A stretch of 64,000 nucleotides of DNA, from assembly GCF_050320075.1 (NCBI RefSeq), contig NZ_CP190018.1. One strand, given 5' to 3'. A program made the position numbers and the translations under genes. Each line of letters begins with the position of its first letter. The first letter of the stretch is position 1. Below the pieces are notes generated by a model, which was given only the letters and a program-made list of their open reading frames with translations, did not search any database and was not told the origin of the DNA. This DNA is from Escherichia coli. Lineage in GTDB: Bacteria > Pseudomonadota > Gammaproteobacteria > Enterobacterales > Enterobacteriaceae. Positions 26,784 to 39,841 of this stretch are shown here, one piece after another.

Positions 26784-27130
26784 TCAGAAAAGAGAAGATT
26801 GCTGTGGAATAGCCGGAACTGCTCCGATCTCTGGAAGCGTTTTACGTAAGTCTTCCCACAGGGTATGTACCAGTTCCGGGGCCTGGGCAATATCTGGCGT
26901 ATGTAAAAAAAGATAAGGCGTAGTGGTCTGATGCCACTGCGCTAATTTTTGTAACCAGACCTGAAATAATTCCCGGTTTTGCGTCATATCATCACTACCG
27001 ATAAAACGGATCAGCGGATTTGTCGCCGTCAGTACAGCATGTACCGGAACTTTAGGTTTTTTTCGTTGAGCGTCGCGAATAGCTTCACTGTGTGGACGTG
27101 CTGCATGAACCGGGCGGCTGTCTAAAATCA
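26784..27130 (-). pseudogene. yecE: yecE 3' fragment (C-terminal ~114 codons), separated from its 5' half by a 12.2 kb insertion
   Basis: Translation ...ILDSRPVHAARPHSEAIRDAQRKK...QQSSLF continues in frame from the 5' fragment at 39369 once the insert is removed; the ORF-track start at 27134 is a TTG artefact. Confidence 0.85.
27124..27130. repeat. attL core (AAAATCA) of the yecE insertion
   Basis: Identical 7-mer at 39363-39369; left flank joined to right flank restores yecE codons ...NRVILDSR... Confidence 0.65.
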
Positions 27131-27189
27131 TCAAGGTCTAAATGCACTACATGGGCACCTAAACATATACATGTGATGTTGAGGTGTTA

Positions 27190-27210
27190 GAAAGGGGGCT
27201 GTTCAGCCCC
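27190..27210 (-). terminator. Rho-independent terminator for the 306-aa leftward gene
   Basis: On minus strand GGGGCTGAACAGCCCC hairpin followed by CTTTCT, immediately after the stop at 27219. Confidence 0.7.
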
Positions 27211-27218
27211 TGATAGAC

Positions 27219-28139
27219 TTAGTAATTATCCCTGACAACTTCATCATATCTTTCAATGAAGGTTAGTTGTTTATTACTTCCATTATAACTATCAACCCAT
27301 TTGTCTACAGCTTCATCGAATAGAAATAAAAAATCCGTATAATTTATATACACTACATTATCATAATATTGGGTTGGGTGACCTCTTTTACATACAGCAA
27401 TACTAAGACGTCTTTCTTTACCCTGAGTAACTTTGTGTGAATTAAGATTAGTCATGTGAAGCAATGAGTTCCTTAATTCATATAATTCGTCGGAAGTTAC
27501 TCCAAGTTTTTGTATATCTGAGTATGTATCTAACCAATTTTGAAAGACTCTTCTTTTGTTTCCAAACTCAATATAAGCTATAGTATCAATAAATGACATT
27601 AATAGCTTGAAGCTTGACAAGTAATGTTTTTTGTTAAACAGAAGCTTTATTGGTTCCATATGGTCATCATTAAGAAGTTCCTTAATGTGAAAACCATCAT
27701 CTTTCATATACTTATCAAGATAGTCTGGCAAGTCTTTTACACCTTCAATGTGATAGTTAGGTGTGTGCTTATTCCTTAATTGCTCTGACATTGATAACTG
27801 AATATCATATTGTAATTTGCCTTTAACAACGGGGGTGACTATAGCTAAAGGGTTTTCAGGTGCATTTTGAGCTTCTAATGCTAATTCAAACGGAGCAAAA
27901 GGATTACCAATCCGCAAATTTGCATTATATCTTTCAAGTGTCAATTTGTCATTTTCTAAAACAGAAGGGTGTATCCCATAAAATAAACGACAAGAAGCTA
28001 AGTCAATCTCCAAATTCCGCTTTAAAAAATCTAATTTTTGCGCATCATCGCCATCATGTTCGTGAGGTACTATTCCGGCATGTGTGATATGAACTCCATC
28101 AGGACTAAAGCAAAATATGTTGTAGATAATCTCTTTCAT
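27219..28139 (-). CDS. Hypothetical 306-aa protein, AT-rich, counter-oriented accessory gene in the element; has one R-x4-H (RNSLLH) motif
   Basis: Uninterrupted ORF with ATG start, own terminator, transcribed opposite to the rest of the element; no family recognised by eye. Confidence 0.6.
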   Translation of the reverse strand: MKEIIYNIFCFSPDGVHITHAGIVPHEHDGDDAQKLDFLKRNLEIDLASCRLFYGIHPSVLENDKLTLERYNANLRIGNPFAPFELALEAQNAPENPLAIVTPVVKGKLQYDIQLSMSEQLRNKHTPNYHIEGVKDLPDYLDKYMKDDGFHIKELLNDDHMEPIKLLFNKKHYLSSFKLLMSFIDTIAYIEFGNKRRVFQNWLDTYSDIQKLGVTSDELYELRNSLLHMTNLNSHKVTQGKERRLSIAVCKRGHPTQYYDNVVYINYTDFLFLFDEAVDKWVDSYNGSNKQLTFIERYDEVVRDNY

Positions 28140-28400
28140 ACCATTCTAACCTTCAGTGAAAATAAAGTTTTAACTATCATTAGATTATGAACAATCACAA
28201 TTGGCCTGTAAATAACAGGGCATAAACAGGTTCGTTTAGCTTGATTTTATCACTATAACTGTCTGATTTAACGGTAACTCACCAAGTATACACACAGTAA
28301 TTACACAATCCTGTTATTATGTAACTTATTGAAATATATAAATAATTTTTACATTCTTTGTTTGGGGTAAGCTGTGTAATGTTAGTCGTCCCTCTCCAGA

Positions 28401-28414
28401 CACTATATATAGTG
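28401..28414. promoter_or_regulatory. Perfect 14-bp palindrome CACTATATATAGTG in the 1.1 kb ORF-free spacer
   Basis: Read directly; embedded in a run of TATATA-containing repeats. Confidence 0.4.
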
Positions 28415-29102
28415 CTATATACAGGACTATATAACGATATATAGATGTTTGGTCACATGGTATAACTATCAAACCACTTAACGATTTCCTACGTGAAAGT
28501 TAGAAAGTGATAGTTATAGTTACCTTGTCAAATCTTCGTAGTCCCTTCTTAAAAAATCGTGAAAGGTAATCTTGTTATCTATACAGAATCTACGTAGATG
28601 CTTCTTAGTGCGCAAAACAGCTATTATGTTAAAAACGCACTGTATACGTATCAGTACTGATTTATAAGGGTTTTGTGTATTGGCTGATAAGAGGCTATAC
28701 AGCACCTTGAGAGCATGTCTTCTAAGTCATTGACATATAAGGTCACAGAAGTTTGTAGCTGTTACAGAGAAAACTGGATAGGACTTCACAGAACTATAAA
28801 ATGTTACAGCTATTGATAGGTGAAATCTTCTTGATAGATGCTTTGAAGTGTGGTGAAGGCTTTTTGAGGTGGGGCTAAACAGATATCATGAAGAAAGTCA
28901 ATAGTTGATTCGGTTTATCGAATAAACCTCATAGATATTTTAAAATTCTGCAAAGGGGGTCACATAGCTGGTGTGACGGGTACTTAGCAGCTACAGACAT
29001 CTATCAGATATTTTTGAAGATTTTTAGAAGGGGAATTTGAAGAGGGGCTACTACGATTTTATAAAAATTTTCAGATTCTGAAAAGTTACTGTACAGAATA
29101 TG

Positions 29103-29127
29103 TACAGATATCTTTAAAGTATCTGTA
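29103..29127. promoter_or_regulatory. Inverted repeat TACAGATA-N9-TATCTGTA (candidate operator) upstream of the MTase gene
   Basis: Read directly; adjacent direct repeats GTACAGA(A/T)AT and GATATCC x2. Confidence 0.4.
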
Positions 29128-29249
29128 AAAACTTTTAAGATAAAAGATAGATATCCCAGAAAGGATATCCGTTTAGAAAACCTATTAAGTATCTCTTAAA
29201 AGAGAGTAAACCTTGTCAAGAGTGATTGCAATAAAAATTTTTATTTCTT

Positions 29250-29912
29250 ATGTCAATTGAGTGTATTTTAATCGGGAAACATCATGGGGGTTCTGATTAC
29301 TGGAGAACTCCATTTTTGTTATTTAAGAACTTACACCGTGAATTTATTTTCAGTCTGGATGGTGCTGCAACTAAGCACGATACGTTATTACCCCGCTTTA
29401 CGGATGATATTCACAATCAGTCATGGGATGGTGAACGGGTATTCTGTAACCCACCATACAGCGACACTAAAACATTCCTCGTAAAAGCGTCTGAGGCAGA
29501 TTTATCGGTATTCCTGATACCGTACCGACCCCAAACCATATACTGGCTTAAGCACATCTTCACAAACCCGCTTTGCCATGAAATCCGTATTCTTCATCGT
29601 GCAGTTAAATACCTTCCACCAGCAGGGCATAACAGGCTTACTATTAGGTCGCCGTTTCCAAGTGCAGTCGTTGTTTTTAAAAAAGAACCACGCAGGCATG
29701 AAATTACGCAGATGGTTTGCTGTGCTGATACATTGCTACCGTTAACCATCATTAACAGAGGAGGCTTGAGAGGAAGGCCCACCATTTACCCACCTGAGAC
29801 GCTCGACAGCTTCATAAAACTATACAGGCAAGGCAAACCCATTAAGTGCATTGCAGATGCTCTCAGAATGCCTCTGAGCACGTCATACAGGATTGCTCAA
29901 AGGTTGAGCTAG
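29250..29912 (+). CDS. Phage-type DNA N6-adenine methyltransferase (Dam family) with C-terminal HTH-like tail
   Basis: SDYWRTPF...FSLDGAA...FCNPPY motifs typical of phage Dam MTases; C-terminal GRP...IADALRMPLSTSYRIAQRL resembles an HTH. Confidence 0.75.
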   Translation: MSIECILIGKHHGGSDYWRTPFLLFKNLHREFIFSLDGAATKHDTLLPRFTDDIHNQSWDGERVFCNPPYSDTKTFLVKASEADLSVFLIPYRPQTIYWLKHIFTNPLCHEIRILHRAVKYLPPAGHNRLTIRSPFPSAVVVFKKEPRRHEITQMVCCADTLLPLTIINRGGLRGRPTIYPPETLDSFIKLYRQGKPIKCIADALRMPLSTSYRIAQRLS

Positions 29913-30052
29913 AATTCTCATAAATATGGTCATTTACAAGACAGGTGATTTAGATATTAAGAGGTATCCCTGTGAACAATAAATGACCAATCAGTAATTA
30001 TCCTGTGAAATAATTGTTGCAATTTATAATCACACATGGTATAGTTTCATAG

Positions 30053-30197
30053 TGGACTGATAAAAAAGTTCATGTCTTGAAGTGGTAACACTTGGGGAGG
30101 TGTCAGATGATTGACGTATATTAACCTCTCATTCATGGTAATACCTCAGCGTTTTAATCATCGTACTGTTTCAGGCATGGACTTCTTTATCAGTCCA
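30053..30197. promoter_or_regulatory. 145-bp segment bracketed by a perfect 12-bp inverted repeat (TGGACTGATAAA / TTTATCAGTCCA) upstream of the initiator gene
   Basis: Read directly at 30053-30064 and 30186-30197. Confidence 0.4.
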
Positions 30198-30276
30198 TCA
30201 ATCCCCCAGATATTTTAATCACACAGGCTAATCGGTTTTATCCGGTTGGCCTTTTCACGTATGAGGTAATTTATGA

Positions 30277-31245
30277 ATGAAAAAAGAAACTAATGCTTTT
30301 ATTATGGTAGATAAACGAGTTGCACAATTCCCTAAAACATTAAAGCCAATTGACCGCTTGGTATATTTCACTATGCTGGATGGTGCTGATTATTACGAAT
30401 CTAAGTTCGGGAGATACGCACCAAGTATTGACTATTTGATGGTTATGTCTGGTGCTACACGTAATACAGTTATTGATTCACTTAAGAGACTTGAGTCACA
30501 CAGACTTATCGAAAAGACCAATGTAAAGGGTCAGCAAAGTATTTTTAAAGTATTCACGTTGGATGAGCGTCCAGAGGTCTTATCAGAACCTACCCTTGAT
30601 GAGCGTCGTAGAGCTAAATTATCAGGTCAACCAGAATCTGACAGTAACCCAACCAAAAATTGGTTACCTACCCAACCAGAATTTGGTTACCTACCTAACC
30701 AGAATTTGGTTACATGTAATACTGAATATAAAGACAAAAATATAAATACTGAAGAAGAAAGACTAAAAGGGAACTTTGAAGAAGAATCTCTTAAGAAGGG
30801 AGCTTCGCTCTGTGATTCACATGAATGTGATATTAAAGAAGATGACTTTCTTTCTTTGGATGAATTAAATGATTTTCTCTCTATGAATGAATCTGGCCTT
30901 GATAGTGAAGCTACTAAAGAGGCTGTTAAAAAGGAAGATAAAATCTCTGATGTGAATATCGATAGTGACCATAAAAACACACAGTGCCCCGCCACTGATG
31001 ATGAGATGGACCCCTTCGATGATTACCTTGATGAAGAGTCAGAGCGTGAAAAAGCCATTAAGAGGGTAGAGAAGAAAAAGAGATTCGAGCTTGCAAGACA
31101 AAAGAACAAAGTATCGGGTTTAGACCCATTCGATGACAGTGACGATGATGACTTTTCTTTCACACCAAGAAAGAAACAAACTCAGGATGACAAGAAGCAA
31201 AAAATTAAACCGAAGATGTATTTTGCTGGTGGAGGTATGCGCTAA
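30277..31245 (+). CDS. Putative replication initiator / replisome organiser (N-terminal winged-helix-like domain, acidic C-terminal tail)
   Basis: N-terminus resembles phage initiator DNA-binding domains; tandem iterons inside the ORF; highly acidic low-complexity C-terminal half. Confidence 0.55.
   Translation: MKKETNAFIMVDKRVAQFPKTLKPIDRLVYFTMLDGADYYESKFGRYAPSIDYLMVMSGATRNTVIDSLKRLESHRLIEKTNVKGQQSIFKVFTLDERPEVLSEPTLDERRRAKLSGQPESDSNPTKNWLPTQPEFGYLPNQNLVTCNTEYKDKNINTEEERLKGNFEEESLKKGASLCDSHECDIKEDDFLSLDELNDFLSMNESGLDSEATKEAVKKEDKISDVNIDSDHKNTQCPATDDEMDPFDDYLDEESEREKAIKRVEKKKRFELARQKNKVSGLDPFDDSDDDDFSFTPRKKQTQDDKKQKIKPKMYFAGGGMR
30641..30714. repeat. Tandem 23-bp direct repeats (iterons) inside the initiator ORF: TTGGTTACCTACC(C/T)AACCAGAAT
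   Basis: Two full units at 30660-30682 and 30683-30705 (1 mismatch) plus flanking partial units. Confidence 0.8.
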
Positions 31246-31541
31246 TGAAAGAATATCACGGTGAAAAGAGATACAAAGATTACCTGTTAAAGCGTTATAG
31301 CATTTCTCGTGAAGGCCACTTAATGAAGGATACTCACGGGGAAGTTTACCGGATTAGACCGAAGAAAGAAGGGAGGGATTATTTCTTTTACGATGGTGTG
31401 ACAGATTTAAAGATTGATGCTTTGAAGTTTGCGGCGCTGTATCATTATGATATCTGGGACTCAGTCCACCAGCTACGATTAAAAGACGGTGACCCCGGTA
31501 ATCTGAGGGCCACCAATATTATCAAGGGAAAGTGCCGGTAA
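31245..31541 (+). CDS. Small HNH_3/NUMOD4-like protein (98 aa), catalytic His not evident
   Basis: YSISREGHLMKDTHGEVYRIRPKKEGRDYFFYDG...LKDGDPGNLRATN resembles NUMOD4/HNH_3 layout; overlaps initiator stop. Confidence 0.45.
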   Translation: MKEYHGEKRYKDYLLKRYSISREGHLMKDTHGEVYRIRPKKEGRDYFFYDGVTDLKIDALKFAALYHYDIWDSVHQLRLKDGDPGNLRATNIIKGKCR

Positions 31542-31864
31542 GTCCACCAGCTATTTATTTATTGAAATCTCTATCTCAACACGAAGAAGTTTAAGTCGAA
31601 TTGTAAGCTTTGTCTTTTTTGTAATGACTCGATTCATAACGCAAAACACCAATAGCACAATAAATACCGCAAAGCCCAACGAGCTAAAACGATGAGATTC
31701 AATAATTGCTGTGAAAAAATCATGCATTAATTTTCCTTTTGCGAAAGGAAACAGCACCTGTATCAGCCCCTATAACCATAATATCATGTAAATGAGATGT
31801 TGACAATATGTTAAATAAATGTTATGATTGTAGTATGAGTAAGAGATTTAAGGAGATTTTTACA

Positions 31865-32155
31865 ATGACTCACACAGTTACGCGCCTTTTGCCAGAGGCA
31901 TTTGAACGACTGGCAGCAATCAAAGCCAAATATCCCGATATGAAGCACACAGCGCTTGTTGGAGAGCTTTTAAAAGAGTCGGTAACCCTGACCCCTTTCG
32001 ATAACGTTAAGGGCGTTGCAGAGGGTTCTAAGGCCATCAGAATCACAACGGACCAACTGGAACTACTCAAAGCACAGTCCGCAGTAGCAGGTTGCTCAAT
32101 GATTCAGGTGTTAAGCGCAAAGGTCCATCAATTAGCGGATAGGCTGGGGGTTTAA
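31865..32155 (+). CDS. Hypothetical small protein (96 aa)
   Basis: AAGGAG RBS 8 nt upstream of ATG at 31865; ORF-track start at 31808 is probably an extension; stop overlaps next gene (TAATG). Confidence 0.5.
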   Translation: MTHTVTRLLPEAFERLAAIKAKYPDMKHTALVGELLKESVTLTPFDNVKGVAEGSKAIRITTDQLELLKAQSAVAGCSMIQVLSAKVHQLADRLGV

Positions 32156-32580
32156 TGCTATGCACATTTGATTATCATGCGTTTTATCGCCATAGAGGCC
32201 ACCTTGTCCGTGAGAATAGCGGAACATGGAAAGATTTAACTCGTAATGCTGAACCCTTCACACACCAGCAATTAAAATCCCGCTTCTCCAGATGGAAGAA
32301 TGCACCAGCAGATACTGGTGATTTTGAGATTATCCATACCTTCGATTATGCCTCAGAAGATGACCTTCACGATGCAATTAAGCTGATTGAAGACTTCAAT
32401 ACCTCAGAAGATGTGGATGGTGACAAATATAAATCCCGTGGTAACCGCTATAACCGTGATGATATCACTCAGGCCATAAATGCTGGTCAATCTCAGCGAT
32501 ACATTACAGAAAAATATGGTATTTCACGGAGACAGTATTTCTACGTTAAATCATTGATTAATAAAGACAATTCAAAATAA
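32155..32580 (+). CDS. Hypothetical protein (141 aa) with C-terminal HTH-like segment
   Basis: Translationally coupled to upstream gene; C-terminus ...QSQRYITEKYGISRRQYFYVK resembles a Hin/resolvase-type HTH. Confidence 0.5.
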   Translation: MLCTFDYHAFYRHRGHLVRENSGTWKDLTRNAEPFTHQQLKSRFSRWKNAPADTGDFEIIHTFDYASEDDLHDAIKLIEDFNTSEDVDGDKYKSRGNRYNRDDITQAINAGQSQRYITEKYGISRRQYFYVKSLINKDNSK

Positions 32581-32741
32581 CCATCTCAGTAACGGTAGAA
32601 TGCACTTTACAGGCAGAGTTGCACCTTAATTTGATAAATTACCTTACCAGCCAGTGCAACTCCCTCTGTAACCCGCATGATTACTGGTCTCAGAATGGCT
32701 ATTTTAAGAGGTCTGAGATGTGTTTTGTAGGAGATTTAAAA

Positions 32742-33065
32742 ATGAACAACTTCCCATTACAGATTTTCGTTGATAACGACACCGCTATGATGGTGCAAAG
32801 CTTCAGTGATGCAGGTATTAGCATTGATTTTGACAGGCTGTTAAAGCTAATGGCTGATAATGAAGAAAACGTCTCTGACTTTATTCACTCGGTGGAGTTT
32901 AACGAGCCTCGAATGATGTTACCAATTACAGACAGTAATATGAAAAGATTGGTTATTGAGCAAACGAACAAATACAGTATTTCCCCAGAGCAATTTTTGA
33001 AAGGTGCTGTGACAATCCTGTACAGCGATAATATTTTGGTTACGGATTCCGTGAGGGTTCACTAA
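32742..33065 (+). CDS. Hypothetical small protein (107 aa)
   Basis: GGAG-type RBS before ATG at 32742; ORF-track start at 32619 is probably an extension. Confidence 0.45.
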   Translation: MNNFPLQIFVDNDTAMMVQSFSDAGISIDFDRLLKLMADNEENVSDFIHSVEFNEPRMMLPITDSNMKRLVIEQTNKYSISPEQFLKGAVTILYSDNILVTDSVRVH

Positions 33066-33359
33066 TGGGCTTAATAATTGCTTGGACGTTGCTTGGCTTA
33101 TTTGTTGGTTGCTGGGTAGGCAGCACAGTAAATAGAAATTGATGTTACCAATCTGTTAAAAAGCTGTTGACAAATAACCTTAAGCATGAGATGATGGTAA
33201 TAGGGGAGAGCAACTCTCTCTTATTTTTCTTTCAAAATAATCCGATGGATGGATATTCTGAATTGGAAAGGTGCAATGCTTTTCGTCATGGCCTTTCAGT
33301 TTAGTCTGAGAGGCTATCTCAAAAAGTGCTTAATCATTCATTGAACCCTTTACAGCTTT

Positions 33360-33387
33360 GCCCTAACTCATGATTAGGGCTTTCTTT
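33360..33387 (+). terminator. Rho-independent terminator-like hairpin
   Basis: Stem GCCCTAA/TTAGGGC with 7-nt loop followed by TTTCTTT. Confidence 0.55.
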
Positions 33388-33456
33388 AAGAGTTTTTAAA
33401 CAGAGCTTTTAAAGAAAGTTTTTCCTGAAACTTCGTTAACGTTAAAGCAAACCTTC

Positions 33457-33520
33457 AAAGCCCTTCACAGATGAGGATGATTCCATGAATATCCGAATCA
33501 CCTATGTTTAGGGCTTTTTT
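33457..33520 (+). ncRNA. Long-loop hairpin with U-tract (candidate small RNA 3' end or attenuator)
   Basis: Outer stem AAAGCCCT/AGGGCTTT enclosing inner GGAT/ATCC stem, followed by T6. Confidence 0.3.
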
Positions 33521-33636
33521 CAGCTTTTAAAAAGCATACTTGGCAAACGCCTTTTAAGCCTCTTCTAAGTTCGAGGATGTCAGGTGTGCTTTTTAAAAAC
33601 TGAAACATAAATTATCTTAGAAGAGGAAAGGTATTA

Positions 33637-34341
33637 ATGGCTATCCGTGATGAAAATGAAATGATTATTGAAAACAAACCAAGTGCACTTGATATTCACG
33701 AATTAAGTTTGCGTGAATCTTTTGATAGAGCTTGGCGGGAATCACACGAAGTAAATAAAGGTCCATATATTCCACCAGAACCACTCGAGATTCCAAGAGT
33801 TGAAATTGATTTTTCTATGAACGAACGGTGTGAACTTGATTTGAAGTTGAAGCTACAACGCCGATATTTCCAAGCTATTAAAGACTCTCAAGAAGCAATG
33901 AGAAGTGTTTATGAGAAAATTCAGTCCAAGCTTGAAGACGAAATTGACGAAATGGCTATTTTGATGGAGCTTCAAACCAATCCTTATGCTTATTTCTCTC
34001 GACTAGACCGTGACGGTTGGGGGTATGACCCTGTAGAGATTGGTAAAGTGATTGCAGATTTACCAGAAGGTCAAAGGGTTATTCGTACGGAAAGGGCCAT
34101 CAGAGCGCCACATCAACTGTCTCTAATTGTTGCTGATAAATCACAAGCTGAGCTTGAAGAAATTGCCAAAGAGAAACTGATGAAAGCAAGAGAAAATGAG
34201 ATTAATTTGCTGAAATCAAGACTGGCTAAGCTGATTAGTGACCATCAAGCGCTGGCTAAGGAGTACCGTCAAGAGTTGGCACAGATTATCAGCTTCAATG
34301 ATTTTCTGAGTGTTCCACGAGAATTTAGCAAGGCTGTTTGA
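33637..34341 (+). CDS. Hypothetical protein (234 aa), charged coiled-coil-rich
   Basis: ORF with ATG and GAGG-type RBS; no family recognised. Confidence 0.55.
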   Translation: MAIRDENEMIIENKPSALDIHELSLRESFDRAWRESHEVNKGPYIPPEPLEIPRVEIDFSMNERCELDLKLKLQRRYFQAIKDSQEAMRSVYEKIQSKLEDEIDEMAILMELQTNPYAYFSRLDRDGWGYDPVEIGKVIADLPEGQRVIRTERAIRAPHQLSLIVADKSQAELEEIAKEKLMKARENEINLLKSRLAKLISDHQALAKEYRQELAQIISFNDFLSVPREFSKAV

Positions 34342-34364
34342 TTATGAATTAAAAGAGGTGATTA

Positions 34365-34583
34365 ATGTATGAAGACCGTTTGGAAACTATCAAGGCAGTT
34401 TGTGAAAAACTTAAAAACCAACCACGTAAACCAAAAACGGTAAAGAGTAAGCATCAGCCTGTCACCTCAAACAGCAAAATAAAGATTCGCAAAATTCCTT
34501 CGTGGTGCATTGACCGTATTCCGGTTGGTTCAAGAATTATTCGTGAAGATGGTGATTATCATTGGGTATCAGTTGTTGGTTAG
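34365..34583 (+). CDS. Hypothetical small basic protein (72 aa)
   Basis: RBS GAGGTG before ATG; gene-dense context. Confidence 0.45.
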   Translation: MYEDRLETIKAVCEKLKNQPRKPKTVKSKHQPVTSNSKIKIRKIPSWCIDRIPVGSRIIREDGDYHWVSVVG

Positions 34584-34671
34584 TTAGTAAAAATCTACGG
34601 GAGAGATTATCGAGTGATATCGGTAGCTCTCCCTTTTTCGTATATGAACACTTAAGAGGTGAAAAATATGA

Positions 34672-36804
34672 ATGAGCAAATTCACAGTTGATAGTTTTAT
34701 CGTTGAATTAAGCTTCAATGAAAACATTATTAAGGGCTTGCAAAGAGTTGAAAAGGCAGCTTTGCAGTCAGCACAAAGAATTGAAAAGAACCTAAATAAA
34801 GGTTTCAGGATTAATACAAAGCAGCTTGATAGTAATTTAACGGCTTCTTTAGGGCAGCTTGAAAGGAAGTTTAATAAGGCCTTTGACAAGATTGAACAGA
34901 GAGCAAGAAATACTAAAGCTTTCCAGTTTACCACCAGATTTAATGACACTGTTAATCCTCCAAAACAACCGAGACAGCCACGAATTAGCGGCAACAGAGC
35001 AATCACAGCAGCTTACTCAGCGAATATGAGCAAGCTAAAAGGCTTTGACCCTATTTTGCAGAAATACATCAAATCTCAGTTTTACGGGCTATCTGCTAAA
35101 GCCGGTTCAATGGATTCTTCAAAATTCAATGAGAAGTTAGCTCAGTTAAACGCTTCAGTCAGAGAAGCAATTGCTAAAGCCAGAGGTCATACATCCACCA
35201 GCATTAATGGTGACAGAGCAGCTAATAGTCTTGATAACCTGTCTTCAGCAGCAGTTAAAACAGCAGGTGCATTTATCTCAATGCAGGCTGTATTAGCCAG
35301 TTATCAGAAGATTATGGAAATTGGTTTACAGCGTGCAAGTGCTGAACGTTCAATTGATTTCGTATTTGATAAAGATGCAGGTCAAGTAAAAGAGTTCACA
35401 AAGTCATTAGCTCAAACAACGGGTTTAGATATCGCTGAACTGCAATCACAGTTTGCTGGTTTTGGTGCTTCAGCTAAAGAGTCTATGGGCATTCAAGGTT
35501 CTGAAGAACTTTTTAAAAATATGATTGGCTATGCTCGTCTGATGGGGAGAAGTGAAGAAGAGATTAAGCGAGCACTGACAGCATTATCACAGATGGCTGG
35601 TAAGGGTCAGGTTATGGCTGAAGAGCTTAAGGGGCAATTAGCTGAAGCTGTTCCTGGTATGGTTCAGGTATTCGCTAAAGCAACCGGAAGGAATGAACAA
35701 GAGCTATTTGATGCCATGAAGAAGGGGGCTTTAAAATCTGCCGATACTCTTCAGAAGGTCACTCAGGAACTGAATAAACAAATCACCGCTAAAGGTGGCT
35801 GGAAAGCTATTTCAGAAAGTACACAGGCACAACTAGGGAACCTGAAAAACTCTTGGAATACCACGCTTGATAGTATCTTCAGAGGTTCTGAAGATGGTCT
35901 GCAAGATTTTACAAGAAGCTTAACAACGCTTTTAAACGCTCTTGGTGGAAGTGGTAAAAGTCTTGGTGAATCTCTTGGTAGTCTCATGACTTCTATGTCA
36001 CATGGTGTCGATTCATTGACTGATATCAGCTACAGGGTAAGAGCATTCTTCGATGAGGTGACATTAGCTTACCGTTCACTAAATGACACTCAGAAAAAAA
36101 TTGTTGATGGTTTATCTGATGGGTTAATTGATGGTTTGAAGATGCTTGCCGTAGCTGTTACTGCTCAAAAGGCTGCAAATGTAGCTGGAGGCTTGTTAAA
36201 CCTTGCAAATGCTGTTACTTCATTCGGTGATGCTGTTAATAAAGCTAAAGCTGGCAAGGCTGGTTCTTCAGGTGGTGCGCTAAATAAAGTTGGTAGAGTT
36301 GTTCTTTATGCTGAGTTGGTGAACTTTGCTCTTGATAATTTAAACCCTGAAGCGGCTAAGAATCCGAACTTACACCAATCAGGTATTGGAACAGAGACAA
36401 ACTTCAACCCTGAATACAAAGGCGATTCATCTAAACCAAACCAAATTAATGATGGATGGGCTAAGATTGGTAGTTCTATCGCTGACTGGTTTAATGGTGC
36501 GGCTAATAAAATTGCTAACTTCCAAGACCCGATGAATAACTTTGTTAATAACACACAATCAACTCCACCAGCTATCACAGGTGACATGGTTAATAGCAAT
36601 GCTCAACTTGCTATGGCTGTATCAGAGTTAGGAAGAAAGGTAGACGCTTTAACAGTAGAAGCTAAGAAGCCTTTATCAGTTAATATCAAAGGTGAAGCAA
36701 TTGTTAGACCGGATGAACCAGCTTTCTTTACTTTCAATCAATCAGCTAATGACCAGTTCACGCAGGATATGCTCTTAAGTTCAAGCTATCCAGAGGAAGA
36801 ATGA
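34672..36804 (+). CDS. Tape-measure-domain-like protein (710 aa)
   Basis: Central segment ...MAEELKGQLAEAVPGMVQVFAKATGRNEQELFDAMKKGALKSADTLQKV... resembles the conserved phage tape-measure domain; Ala/Gly/Ser-rich low-complexity C-terminal part. Confidence 0.55.
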   Translation: MSKFTVDSFIVELSFNENIIKGLQRVEKAALQSAQRIEKNLNKGFRINTKQLDSNLTASLGQLERKFNKAFDKIEQRARNTKAFQFTTRFNDTVNPPKQPRQPRISGNRAITAAYSANMSKLKGFDPILQKYIKSQFYGLSAKAGSMDSSKFNEKLAQLNASVREAIAKARGHTSTSINGDRAANSLDNLSSAAVKTAGAFISMQAVLASYQKIMEIGLQRASAERSIDFVFDKDAGQVKEFTKSLAQTTGLDIAELQSQFAGFGASAKESMGIQGSEELFKNMIGYARLMGRSEEEIKRALTALSQMAGKGQVMAEELKGQLAEAVPGMVQVFAKATGRNEQELFDAMKKGALKSADTLQKVTQELNKQITAKGGWKAISESTQAQLGNLKNSWNTTLDSIFRGSEDGLQDFTRSLTTLLNALGGSGKSLGESLGSLMTSMSHGVDSLTDISYRVRAFFDEVTLAYRSLNDTQKKIVDGLSDGLIDGLKMLAVAVTAQKAANVAGGLLNLANAVTSFGDAVNKAKAGKAGSSGGALNKVGRVVLYAELVNFALDNLNPEAAKNPNLHQSGIGTETNFNPEYKGDSSKPNQINDGWAKIGSSIADWFNGAANKIANFQDPMNNFVNNTQSTPPAITGDMVNSNAQLAMAVSELGRKVDALTVEAKKPLSVNIKGEAIVRPDEPAFFTFNQSANDQFTQDMLLSSSYPEEE

Positions 36805-36967
36805 TTTCTTATATATCCGTGTGCTACGTGATTTCTTCTGAACAGATATACCCACTAAAAATTATTTTTTACGTAGCTCACGCTTAACAGAGAAAATACT
36901 TATATATCAAAGGCTTGGTTAAAAATGATTAAAATACACTAAGCCTTTGAAATCAAAGGAGAATTTA

Positions 36968-37741
36968 ATGATTTACTCTAATCAGATTCGTTACAGTGGT
37001 AAAGATGGCGTTTACTTTCATCTACAAGGCCAGCCAGATAATTTCTTGTCACTATCAGCTACTGAGAACATGGAATTTGACAGCCCTATGATGGTTACCA
37101 CTCAAAATATGCAATCAGGGCAGACTGTCACAGATAATGTAATGCGTTCACCCAGAACTATTTCAATCAGTGGTGTGGTTGTAGTTGGTGAATCCGGTAG
37201 TATCCTTATCTCAAGAGATAATAAGCTGGTGGAAAACTTCATAGACACTCTTGAAAACTGGCGTGACCAGAAGCAAATTATCTCAGTTGTCTGTAAAGAT
37301 GGTATTAAGATTGACGACTCAATTATTACAAACTTTAAAGCCTCTAAAGATGTTGGTATTGCCAATGGTCTTAGAATCCAATTAACTTTTCAGGAAATTA
37401 ACTTTAAAGCTATTGTGGGTCAGACTGATATCTCGGCTGCGACCGGAAGGACTTCTACCACAAGTGATGGTGGTGCTACCAGTAAAAAGAATACAGGGAA
37501 CACTACGACAAGCTTAGGTAACGGTATGTTGATGTGTCAGGAGCTATATAATCGCTCTACGAGTGAACTTACTAATGAGCAACTTCAAGCCCGTATCAAT
37601 TGTGGTAAAAATGTCAGAGTTAAGAACGGAAAAAGCACCTTCTCAGATGCCGCTAATGAGCAAGCTTCAAAGGTGCTTAATAATGCTGGTACAGGTAGTA
37701 CTTTGAAGAAGTATTCTGTTAATCCTAACAAGCGATACTGA
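36968..37741 (+). CDS. Hypothetical protein (257 aa), possible virion/tail-associated
   Basis: AAGGAG RBS before ATG at 36968 (ORF-track start 36947 is TTG); directly follows the tape-measure-like gene. Confidence 0.45.
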
Positions 37742-37755
37742 CGATAGAATCTCAA

Positions 37756-39279
37756 CTATATGATAACCTCATCAACATCTATTAAACCCCTCTCAGTGAC
37801 TTCAGAAAGCGACTGTATAGCCTCTGTAACGTTGTCTGAGGGGTTTTCTGTTATTGGTAAGGTGATTGCTTTACCGTTGTGAAAAGTTACTTTACAGCGA
37901 CGTTTAGCAGTATTTAAAACGACCTCTTTAACAGCACTTTTGATTATCAGTTGTGCTTCAATCCTTCCCGCCTTTGTAGTCAAGTCACAATCAGACAAAC
38001 AACCCACATCAATAGATTTAAGGCGTTGTGTCTCCTTCTCGATATCCGCATCAACTTGTGATAGCTCATTCTTTAGTTGTCTTAGTTTGCTGGTAATAGC
38101 GGACAAGTCTTCAATTTCAAGTGATAGCTGTACCAGCTTTTCAATATTGCTTGAGATGTGTTCACGGTGTAGCTTCAGTGTGTCTATGGTATTCGTCATA
38201 TCGCTATCAAATCGGTCAAGACGAGATAGCAGGGCAAGCAATGTACCATCGGTTTGCTTACGTGAAAGTCCTTTAGCACTACAACGGTTTTCATTACGAA
38301 GAGGACAACGATAAATCCCGTTTCTTGTATCGCTAAAGCCTGTGATAATCAAAGCATGACCACATTCAGAACAACGGATAACACCTTTGAAAAGATTCAC
38401 AGCCATTGGCTTATCTGAAGCAGGTTTTCTACCGTAACGAGCATATGATAGTTGTTGAACTTTGTAGAATGTTGTTTCATCTATAATTGCAGGATAATAA
38501 CCAGATATCTCCTCACAGCCTTTAGGTGTGAAGTAACCAATTACAGAGCGATTCTTCAAAAGGTCTTGCACTGAGGTTTGACCAAACTTACCTGCTTTGT
38601 ACTGGTTAAGCGTCTGGTGACCTTCAGCATTAAGAGTTCTGACAATCTCCCAGATAGACTTACCCTCTAACCGTAGCTGAAAGCACCTCTTCACAGTCTC
38701 CACTTTCTCAGGTATCACAGAGAAGCTTTTACGGTCATCATTAAGCTTAAGCCATGCAGGACAACGCCTAGAAATCTTGATACCAGCTTTAGCAGCTTCT
38801 TTCTTTGCATCCCATGCAGCTTGTATACGCTCAGCCTTACGTAATGATTCCTCATGCGCCCTTTGCATTATCAAAATGCTTTTAATCAGAGCTAACGGGT
38901 CTTTAAGAGATTCCCTTGTGTAATGTTCACCATCGGACAGGGTGACTACATCTACACCAGAGCGAAGAATGTTTCTGAGTAGCTCACTTGCTTGGTCTAC
39001 GTCCTGACGTGAGAGACGGTCTAAACTCTCGATTAGTAGTGTATCACCAGCTTTAACAAGCCCTTTCTCGATAGCGGTTAAAAAGTCACCTAAGCCACCT
39101 TTCAAGTGCTTACCAGTGAACCCGCTAACGCCTAAATCACGAAAAGTAAGGGATTCATCCAGATAGTACTCAGGATGAGCCTTAAGCCAATCAGTGACCA
39201 TCTTAGCCTGTCGTCTTAATGAGTCGCCTCTGGATTGCTTCTCAGATGAAAACCGGATGTAACTGATTGCACGTTTCAT
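37756..39279 (-). CDS. Large serine recombinase (integrase)
   Basis: 507 aa; N-terminal resolvase-type catalytic domain (YIRFSSEKQ with catalytic Ser), recombinase domain, Cys-rich zinc ribbon (CSECGH...YRCPLRNENRC), C-terminal coiled coil; adjacent to attR. Confidence 0.9.
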   Translation of the reverse strand: MKRAISYIRFSSEKQSRGDSLRRQAKMVTDWLKAHPEYYLDESLTFRDLGVSGFTGKHLKGGLGDFLTAIEKGLVKAGDTLLIESLDRLSRQDVDQASELLRNILRSGVDVVTLSDGEHYTRESLKDPLALIKSILIMQRAHEESLRKAERIQAAWDAKKEAAKAGIKISRRCPAWLKLNDDRKSFSVIPEKVETVKRCFQLRLEGKSIWEIVRTLNAEGHQTLNQYKAGKFGQTSVQDLLKNRSVIGYFTPKGCEEISGYYPAIIDETTFYKVQQLSYARYGRKPASDKPMAVNLFKGVIRCSECGHALIITGFSDTRNGIYRCPLRNENRCSAKGLSRKQTDGTLLALLSRLDRFDSDMTNTIDTLKLHREHISSNIEKLVQLSLEIEDLSAITSKLRQLKNELSQVDADIEKETQRLKSIDVGCLSDCDLTTKAGRIEAQLIIKSAVKEVVLNTAKRRCKVTFHNGKAITLPITENPSDNVTEAIQSLSEVTERGLIDVDEVII

Positions 39280-39346
39280 TGTTCACCTCACCAATAGCAG
39301 TTGGGCTTGTACCAACCCCTAGATTGTATCGCTTTAGATGGTGTAT

Positions 39347-39841
39347 TTAAACGTGTCTAATAAAAATCACCCGATTAACGCCGCGCTGATGTAAACCGCG
39401 ATTAAGCGTTTGTTCCTCTTCCCCTTTGGCGAAAAACTGTGGATGGCGGACTTCCACACCATAATTAAATTCGCCGGGAAGGGAATCGAGAAAATGCCAA
39501 AGCGCAGGCAGATCCCGTGGGCCAAATGTGGCAGGCAGTTGCAGCCAGTATTGCCCAATGCGCGGCGCTAACGGTGACATGCGGGTCAAAAATTCAGTCA
39601 CTAAATCATCGCAATGCCGTAATGCTGCCTGATGCGAAATGGTCGCCGGAAACTTAAAACAGAAGCGAAAATTATCTGTGGTCTGCTCACGCCAGCGCAG
39701 GACAACCTCGGATTTCGGCAGGGCGTAAAGCGTGGTGTTGCCCTCCACACAGTTAAAGTGGCGGGCATACTCTTCAAGGCTGGTGATCCCCAACCGCACC
39801 CATTTAGGATGCGACCATTGCGGCAGACCGATGTAAATCAT
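39347..39841 (-). pseudogene. yecE: yecE 5' fragment (N-terminal ~158 native codons, reads 6 codons into the insert before a stop)
   Basis: Translation [29 protein letters not shown]... (DUF72); 158 + 114 codons reconstitute a 272-aa protein. Confidence 0.85.
39363..39369. repeat. attR core (AAAATCA) of the yecE insertion
   Basis: Identical 7-mer to 27124-27130. Confidence 0.65.

Follow-up and report, generated by a model that had tools for sequence, protein, structure and literature searches.

A two-domain protein with a predicted catalytic-type HEPN domain, carried as optional cargo of a yecE island in Escherichia coli, is a candidate anti-phage nuclease

Just inside one end of a low-GC island in the Escherichia coli chromosome lies a gene that runs against almost all of its neighbors and whose product has been named only as hypothetical. 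A sequence-only reading had described it as an orphan, a candidate for defense or lysogenic-conversion cargo, which raises the question of what kind of protein it encodes and what purpose this protein might serve. The gene spans 27219..28139, stop codon included, on the minus strand of the window, by which we mean the whole stretch of 64,000 nucleotides that was analyzed. It starts with ATG and encodes 306 aa according to the list of open reading frames (ORFs) of the window, and RefSeq places the same coding sequence (CDS), WP_000658747.1, "hypothetical protein," at the identical locus of E. coli YZLc1-3. Full-length homologues with 30 to 92% identity further support it as a protein-coding gene.

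The genes of the window are those of an E. coli chromosome (flhBAE, argS, yecM, cutC, torYZ, cmoBA, yecN, then yecD and aspS), in which yecE, encoding a DUF72 protein, is split by a low-GC segment (35-42%, vs. ~51% in the flanks). A C-terminal yecE fragment lies on the attL side (26784..27131, minus strand), as seen from ORFs and from the RefSeq pseudogene annotation of the identical locus, and this annotation places the N-terminal fragment at 39365-39841. The island therefore occupies ~27132-39364 (12.2 kb). All its genes are on the plus strand except the one encoding WP_000658747.1 and that of a 507-aa large serine recombinase (37756..39279, minus strand), which is recognized by its annotation and by a match to phrog_95 at 1.9e-79. 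Besides the recombinase, the island encodes a replication initiator, a methyltransferase, a tape-measure homologue, and a phage protein of phrog_3721; annotation and PHROGs reveal no capsid or terminase genes, and the whole looks satellite-like. No Rfam family is found at 27000-39500. The nearest phage relatives of the tape-measure homologue are virulent Felix O1-like myoviruses. The island also carries a conserved 1-kb noncoding region and a cargo slot at attL, and it may be a more unusual object than the gene that concerns us here. As for the gene, most of what had been read from its position is borne out: ORF and RefSeq CDS agree on a minus-strand gene of 306 aa at 27219-28139, gene orientations and annotation make it the only minus-strand gene of the island besides the recombinase (37756-39279), its stop codon lies 88 nt from the end of the yecE' pseudogene fragment (27131), just inside attL, and it is AT-rich, with a GC content of ~35% vs. 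~51% in the flanks.

Whether the gene is cargo can be answered by comparison with related islands. We mapped the slot by blastn and MAFFT alignment of the window island with three sister islands (ZJ3920, B1W1, and H22). The sequence common to the sister islands ends at 27149 and restarts at a palindrome at 28204, which delimits a variable cassette of ~1,054 bp (27150..28203, minus strand). This cassette consists of the ORF, 69 nt downstream that include a hairpin, and 64 nt upstream that include a Shine-Dalgarno sequence and a -10 element. In all four islands compared, the inner boundary of the slot is the conserved element GCCTGTAAATAACAGGGCATAAACAGGT (28204..28232), which contains the palindrome CCTGT-N5-ACAGG. 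What the slot holds differs from island to island: ~15 nt in ZJ3920, ~55 nt in B1W1, and in H22 an unrelated gene on the opposite strand, whose 277-aa product has a transmembrane and coiled-coil appearance and no PADLOC match. The gene encoding WP_000658747.1 is thus optional cargo in a variable attL-proximal slot that is vacant or otherwise occupied in sister islands, as the cargo proposal had it.

The transcription signals around the gene are less clear-cut. A GC-rich hairpin, GGGGCU-GAAC-AGCCCC (27195..27210, minus strand), lies 9 nt past the stop codon and is followed by CUUUCU only, a tail with too few T for a consensus terminator scan, which indeed made no call. A 71-nt fold around the hairpin is no better than that of shuffled sequences (z -1.05). 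Of the gene's supposed own terminator, what stands is the hairpin, a plausible but weak terminator. Upstream, AAGG at 28150-28153 (minus strand) reads as a Shine-Dalgarno sequence, and a sigma-70-like promoter candidate, TTTACA-17 nt-CATAAT (28184..28212, minus strand), matches at 10 of 12 positions in a scan. Since promoter-like sites in the region as a whole are not enriched over shuffles, this is a candidate only. Junction mapping places its -35 in the conserved backbone palindrome and its -10 in the cassette, so part of the promoter appears to be backbone-derived. The stretch of 1.1 kb that had been noted as ORF-free does lack any annotated CDS (28140-29249, with only 48- and 61-aa mechanical ORFs), but from 28204 on it is island backbone, common to sister islands without the gene, and most of it is therefore not a private upstream region.

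The protein is no orphan. Among 5.8 billion clustered proteins we found 59 clusters of full-length homologues, with identities from 92% down to ~30%, and a profile search of 1.84 billion representatives returned 994 proteins at E<=1e-3, of which 392 remain at E<=1e-10 and 151 at E<=1e-30. The 59 clusters include enterobacteria (Escherichia, Klebsiella, Pectobacterium, Pantoea, Enterobacter, Citrobacter, Raoultella, and Erwinia) as well as Stenotrophomonas, cyanobacteria, and planctomycetes. The family also includes stand-alone proteins of ~180 aa that correspond to the C-terminal half, and the window product itself, or near-identical forms in the same 90% cluster with a few substitutions at most, occurs on 894 contigs. 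Homologues are carried by five plasmids, and none was found in 50,697 phage genome records, which makes any parallel with prophage morons a loose one.

Despite this spread, annotation resources have little to say about the family. Its members are named "hypothetical" or "uncharacterized" in the sequence sources searched, and the accession WP_000658747 is absent from the searchable literature. WP_000658747.1 has no match in Pfam even at E<=10 or in NCBIfam at E<=1, and no PADLOC model matches it or 10 relatives at E<=1; PADLOC-DB v2.0.0, which we used, dates from 2023, so later catalogues may already list the family. Nor is there a Pfam match at E<=0.001 for 40 full-length and 28 stand-alone C-domain relatives. 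In PHROGs, the sole match of WP_000658747.1 is a weak one to phrog_12390, which has no assigned function (E 0.007, residues 159-245). The family profile finds nothing among PDB sequences at E<=10, and the 120 matches listed by a word-seeded profile search with the C-domain are all close unannotated relatives, with no annotated HEPN family among them. The libraries queried (in the case of PADLOC, the 2023 version) thus appear to contain no match to the family, to its two-domain architecture, or to its N-terminal fold.

Structural prediction is more informative. The AF2 model, obtained with a 40-sequence alignment (pLDDT 89.7 and pTM 0.82), comprises two domains. The N-terminal part (27735..28139, minus strand) is predicted to form an alpha/beta domain (residues 1-110) that continues into a linker of lower confidence (residues 111-135); conserved residues in the domain are N7, D32, L39, D46, R76, T102, and G107. 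The C-terminal domain (residues 145-306; 27222..27707, minus strand) is HEPN-like in this model, with four core helices, H1 (152-169), H2 (173-192), H3 (216-228), and H4 (267-283), two short helices (198-206 and 209-212) inserted between H2 and H3, a beta insert (244-266) past the motif described below, and an extra helix (290-304) after H4. By the definition of Anantharaman et al. 2013 (PMC3710099), a HEPN domain is a four-helix up-down bundle of two alpha-hairpins in which an Rx4-6H motif closes helix 3 or opens the H3-H4 loop, with a polar residue (N, D, or H) right behind the conserved R; H2 contributes an acidic residue and is separated from H3 by an insert.

Each of these features is seen in the C-terminal domain. 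Its core is a predicted four-helix up-down bundle, an insert at 198-212 separates H2 from H3, and H3 (216-228) is closed by R223-N-S-L-L-H228 (27456..27473, minus strand), the predicted Rx4H catalytic motif. RNSLLH, which the sequence-only reading had placed at about residues 223-228, occupies exactly these positions. Both R223 and H228 are invariant in 40 of 40 diverse homologues, and in an alignment of 207 sequences the arginine is kept in 190 of 195 covering sequences and the histidine in 187 of 193. The HEPN guess had been tied in advance to conservation of R-x4-H in homologues, a test that it survives. The residue after R223 is polar, position 224 being N or H in 182 of 194 sequences (N in 169, H in 13). 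H2 contains K178, D185, and E191, and in the same alignment K178 is kept in 192 of 195 sequences and D185 in 189 of 196, while position 191 is E or D in 174 of 194.

Comparison of folds points in the same direction, although profile-level similarity to an established HEPN family was detected neither in Pfam, nor with the PDB profile, nor by hhalign against ApeA. Foldseek against AFDB50 recovers the family itself at E 1e-54 to 1e-13. Relatives and near-relatives in AFDB bear titles such as Apea-like or AbiU2-like HEPN (E 1e-23 to 1e-6), including one stand-alone C-domain relative titled "HEPN AbiU2-like"; beyond the family, small proteins titled "Apea-like HEPN" appear at E ~1e-6. Among solved structures, the matches include 4nqf, the HepT toxins 7ae2, 5yep, and 8xdj, YutE (1ylm), the sacsin HEPN domain, Csm6, Csx1, 1wwp, and 1jog, with AbiA, AbiV, and LsoA ranking lower. 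The best solved-structure matches to the helical bundle are thus HEPN toxins. Together, the predicted fold and the conserved motif make it very probable that the C-terminal domain of WP_000658747.1 is a HEPN domain of the catalytic type.

What such a protein might do is suggested by the company its homologues keep. One homologue (P0007 locus) shares with Shedu (SduA_C) a serine-recombinase island inserted within a T2SS ATPase gene. In Klebsiella the gene is on a yecE island of like kind, but there it adjoins the recombinase. The Pectobacterium homologue is part of an element that encodes a tyrosine integrase and a relaxase; that of Stenotrophomonas adjoins Shedu and a Mrr_cat-nSTAND1 protein; and that of Pantoea lies in a CP4-57-like island with Mrr_cat, AAA_13, and an AAA_11/12-PLDc_2 helicase. 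Shedu (SduA_C) is therefore found beside homologues in two unrelated loci. The cyanobacterial homologue adjoins an HSP90-like HATPase_c_3 protein and YhcG. Some homologues occupy ordinary chromosomal settings, for example one on a metagenome contig that sits alone between groEL and a gene for a TPP enzyme. Altogether, genes for Shedu, Mrr, STAND, AAA_13, or a PLD-helicase occur in four of seven distinct neighborhoods and the HATPase_c_3 and YhcG pair in a fifth, counts that come from a small sample, the association with defense genes having been judged from eight loci without background statistics. Within this small sample, members of the family are carried by mobile elements and are often found among defense genes.

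We therefore read WP_000658747.1 as a two-domain, single-protein HEPN ribonuclease that is carried as optional cargo of the yecE island and acts by phage-triggered abortive infection, a reading to which we give a probability of roughly 55%. The part of it that assigns the protein to anti-phage defense draws on homologue neighborhoods and on analogy with solo HEPN proteins, and is favored at similarly modest odds. Expression from the gene's own small cassette would be constitutive, and the protein would stay inactive until the previously undescribed N-terminal alpha/beta domain, or the pocket that it may form with the HEPN domain, senses a cue from the phage (a protein or a small molecule); by analogy, the N-terminal domain could be a sensor or an auto-inhibitor. 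Two HEPN domains would then pair, bringing R223, N224, and H228 into a composite Rx4H site that D185 or E191, together with K178 on helix 2, might assist. Cutting would be metal-independent and would hit cellular RNA, most likely the anticodon loops of tRNA, such that translation would halt and the infection be aborted. What we infer in this scheme is RNase activity, dimerization, and the anti-phage phenotype, along with the trigger and the RNA target. The gene is thus a good candidate for a one-protein anti-phage "suicide" nuclease.

A HEPN RNase might instead be the toxin of an addiction module that stabilizes its island or plasmid, with any defense incidental or absent, the antitoxin being either a small RNA or, in cis, the N-terminal domain of the toxin itself. 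Small-RNA antitoxins have precedents in AbiF and ToxIN. We consider this alternative unlikely. All-against-all BLASTP of the neighboring ORFs in nine loci identified no conserved neighbor and no shared partner gene, the sole exception being backbone genes of two related recombinase islands, which means that the homologues behave as a self-contained single-gene module. Nucleotidyltransferase genes that could encode an MNT antitoxin are likewise missing from the vicinity in the nine loci, and membership in the HEPN-MNT (HepT/MntA) systems was rejected because no minimal nucleotidyltransferase gene is adjacent. The cassette DNA on either side of the gene (64 nt upstream and 69 nt downstream) has no type III-like tandem repeats and no Rfam match. 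As for inhibition in cis, stand-alone forms of the C-domain exist that have neither the N-terminal domain nor an obvious partner.

Next in standing, though quite improbable, is a part in the life cycle of the island, in which the RNase would interfere with a helper phage or process island or helper transcripts when the satellite is induced, and would not provide general immunity. The satellite-like gene content of the island (recombinase, replication initiator, methyltransferase, tape-measure homologue, and phrog_3721 protein, with no capsid or terminase) fits this idea, as does the candidate promoter, whose -35 lies in the conserved backbone. A life-cycle function is harder to reconcile with the distribution of the gene. 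The island backbone (noncoding stretch plus methyltransferase region) occurs in ~448 of 5426 complete E. coli genomes, whereas the gene is found in only 13 of the 5426, always 100% identical in nucleotides, and is thus optional. Its carriers include O157:H7 strains, human isolates, and one chicken isolate, and one E. coli copy is interrupted by IS5. Moreover, homologues occur in contexts unrelated to this island, namely the tyrosine-integrase/relaxase element, chromosomal defense islands, plasmids, cyanobacteria, and Stenotrophomonas.

Even less probable, in our view, is that WP_000658747.1 is a noncatalytic HEPN-like protein, such as a nucleotide-binding protein, scaffold, or regulator, or a lysogenic-conversion factor directed at an animal host. 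HEPN domains that have lost catalysis have no Rx4-6H motif (PMC3710099), whereas 97% conservation of Rx4H in this family argues for a catalytic site. A virulence role sits poorly with a translation in which we could read no obvious signal peptide or hydrophobic segment, and the occurrence of the family in environmental bacteria, cyanobacteria, and planctomycetes argues against host-directed virulence. Lysogenic conversion, which had been raised alongside defense for this gene, finds no support.

The last alternative, a divergent member of the ApeA family, has a database title in its favor. AFDB entry A0AAV3H9W9, which is 100% identical to WP_000658747.1, is titled "ApeA N-terminal domain-containing protein," and some structural neighbors are titled "Apea-like HEPN domain-containing protein." The outline layout is also alike, with an N-terminal region of unassigned function followed by a C-terminal HEPN domain with RNxxxH. 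However, the PADLOC ApeA model (PDLC02157), which recovers the Ec2ApeA-like protein P0317 at 2.2e-12 as a positive control, matches neither WP_000658747.1 nor 10 relatives at E<=1. When the family profiles are compared by hhalign with 32 aligned ApeA sequences, seeded by Ec2ApeA (from the supplement of bioRxiv 10.64898/2026.01.26.701840), the probability is 0.1-0.2%, and even at E<=10 a Pfam scan detects neither ApeA_NTD1 nor HEPN_Apea in WP_000658747.1. The architectures differ as well. ApeA, a defense system described by Gao et al. 2020, is a protein of ~585 aa whose three domains (N, Mid, and HEPN) are mostly helical, and it forms decamers or dodecamers (bioRxiv 10.64898/2026.01.26.701840); ApeA-NTD1 is defined as a mostly beta domain of ~300 aa. 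WP_000658747.1, by contrast, has 306 aa, with an alpha/beta N-terminal domain of ~110 aa and a HEPN domain of ~160 aa. The ApeA label is therefore not borne out and kinship with ApeA, the least probable of the alternatives, is largely refuted, the resemblance being one of design, not of family.

An active protein would close a gap in the annotation of defense systems. It would also be small and tractable enough for studying how a HEPN site is silenced and then switched on, and it would mark yecE islands as a platform for cargo exchange that deserves mining. An inactive one would simply add to the hypothetical proteins. Members of the family occur in several phyla, with pathogenic E. coli O157:H7 among the carriers, yet Pfam, NCBIfam, and PADLOC all miss it. 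A bolder version, which we regard as doubtful, would make WP_000658747.1 the founding member of a widespread single-protein immune family (~1,000 clusters at 50% identity), in which a HEPN RNase works under an N-terminal alpha/beta domain of new fold that senses a new infection signal, and which would be traded as attL-hotspot cargo of uncharacterized 12-kb phage satellites that integrate in yecE, have their own tape-measure protein, and possibly parasitize virulent Felix O1-like phages.

How does this candidate compare with what is known? Its setting recalls the P2/P4 hotspots, where phage satellites and prophages carry cargo (Rousset et al. 2022, PMC9122126): as in these, a fixed slot by the integration end is vacant or holds mutually exclusive single-gene cassettes. 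The island differs from P4 in having a large serine recombinase and yecE as its integration site, and its slot differs from the P2/P4 hotspots in that the three slot states compared here include no validated defense gene. As for the protein, the HepT toxins (7ae2, 5yep, and 8xdj), with which it shares 11-12% identity, have neither its extra N-terminal domain nor its beta insert. No PADLOC or Pfam model for PD-T4-2, AbiF/AbiD, AbiV, AbiU2, RnlA/LsoA, PrrC/RloC, or DARNA matches WP_000658747.1. In DARNA/PD-T7-3, whose trigger is ssDNA presented by phage SSB, the domain order is reversed, with an N-terminal HEPN domain and a C-terminal domain of 300 aa. ApeA, for its part, is activated by 5'-phosphorylated deoxydinucleotides through a ligand pocket between its N-terminal and HEPN domains (bioRxiv 10.64898/2026.01.26.701840).

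HepS, a solo HEPN protein of the Gifsy-1 prophage of Salmonella, also mediates abortive infection (Nature 2026, PMC13043305). Its tetramer is opened by the tail-tip protein J, it has anticodon nuclease activity, and its homologues are defined as stand-alone proteins of <250 aa with the motif R100-H105 (PMC13043305). Compared with HepS as described, WP_000658747.1 has an additional N-terminal domain of ~135 aa and a beta insert past the motif. HepS, ApeA, and DARNA are each self-contained immune sensors and effectors, and each has a different trigger. To these solo HEPN nucleases the present family adds a compact 306-aa architecture whose candidate sensor domain has a fold not matched in the libraries queried. 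HEPN abortive-infection nucleases on mobile elements are a well-known kind, and WP_000658747.1 takes its place beside them as a solid, cheaply testable defense candidate, not a surprise.

The protein encoded by the HEPN gene, the minus-strand 306-aa ORF with a predicted C-terminal HEPN-like domain (27219..28139; WP_000658747.1), is identical to AFDB entry A0AAV3H9W9, which UniProt and AFDB title "ApeA N-terminal domain-containing protein." This title could be reproduced neither with Pfam (no match at E ≤ 10) nor with the PADLOC ApeA model, nor when hhalign was used against an ApeA alignment, so the label was probably mis-propagated. Many relatives of ~180 aa (P0121-P0188, in alignment A3) consist of the HEPN-like domain only. 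One of these stand-alone relatives (L018, 5001-5570) sits by itself, with ubiA on one side and a DUF2442 gene on the other, while a different one has an unannotated 127-aa gene directly upstream, which could be a split N-domain.

In the window, the HEPN gene fills the cargo slot of the yecE island, a variable attL-proximal cassette (27150..28203). The inner edge of this slot is marked in four of four islands compared by the same element, GCCTGTAAATAACAGGGCATAAACAGGT (28204-28232), which contains the palindrome CCTGT-N5-ACAGG and provides the -35 of the candidate HEPN gene promoter (28184..28212, minus strand). Cargo exchange could use this element as a landmark for recombination or insertion. 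In E. coli H22 (NZ_CP120563; L004, 1626-2459), an unrelated gene of 277 aa, lying on the other strand, fills the slot. The product of this further unexplained cargo has N-terminal hydrophobic segments and a long, charged, coiled-coil-like C terminus, and is without a PADLOC match. In the O157:H7 form of the island (E32511; L002, 11292-12854), HNH endonuclease remnants adjoin the cargo region together with an inserted IS1203. The HEPN gene of strain 18AR0366 (NZ_CM132283) is itself split by IS5.

Beyond the slot, ~1 kb of noncoding DNA (28204-29249) is kept among sister islands at 80-97% identity. No Rfam family matches it, and short palindromes and inverted repeats are abundant in it, among them CTGTACAGAATATGTACAG (29089-29107) and GGATATCC (29163-29170). 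This region might harbor the island origin, operators or an unannotated RNA.

The HEPN gene is also carried by two islands, that of L007 (GCA_040775625.1) and that of L008/L009 (Klebsiella), which are related to each other, their serine recombinases being 78% and their small resolvases 95% identical. Their insertion sites differ, a T2SS ATPase gene for one and yecE for the other. In these islands the HEPN gene adjoins the recombinase rather than lying at the far end, and the L007 island additionally carries Shedu.

As for the yecE island itself (27132-39364; 12.2 kb), its backbone occurs in ~448 of 5,426 complete E. coli genomes, and we found no description of it in any paper. It has the appearance of a phage satellite. 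Besides its large serine recombinase, it encodes a Dam-like methyltransferase (29250-29912) and a weak match to a RepO-like initiator (30277-31245). It also encodes a tape-measure homologue of 710 aa (34672-36804; phrog_4036, 1e-79) and a phrog_3721 protein of 264 aa (36947-37741) that carries the annotation "baseplate." Capsid, portal and terminase genes are absent. The phage tape-measure proteins closest to the island homologue, at ~30% identity, are those of virulent Felixounavirus (Felix O1-like) phages.
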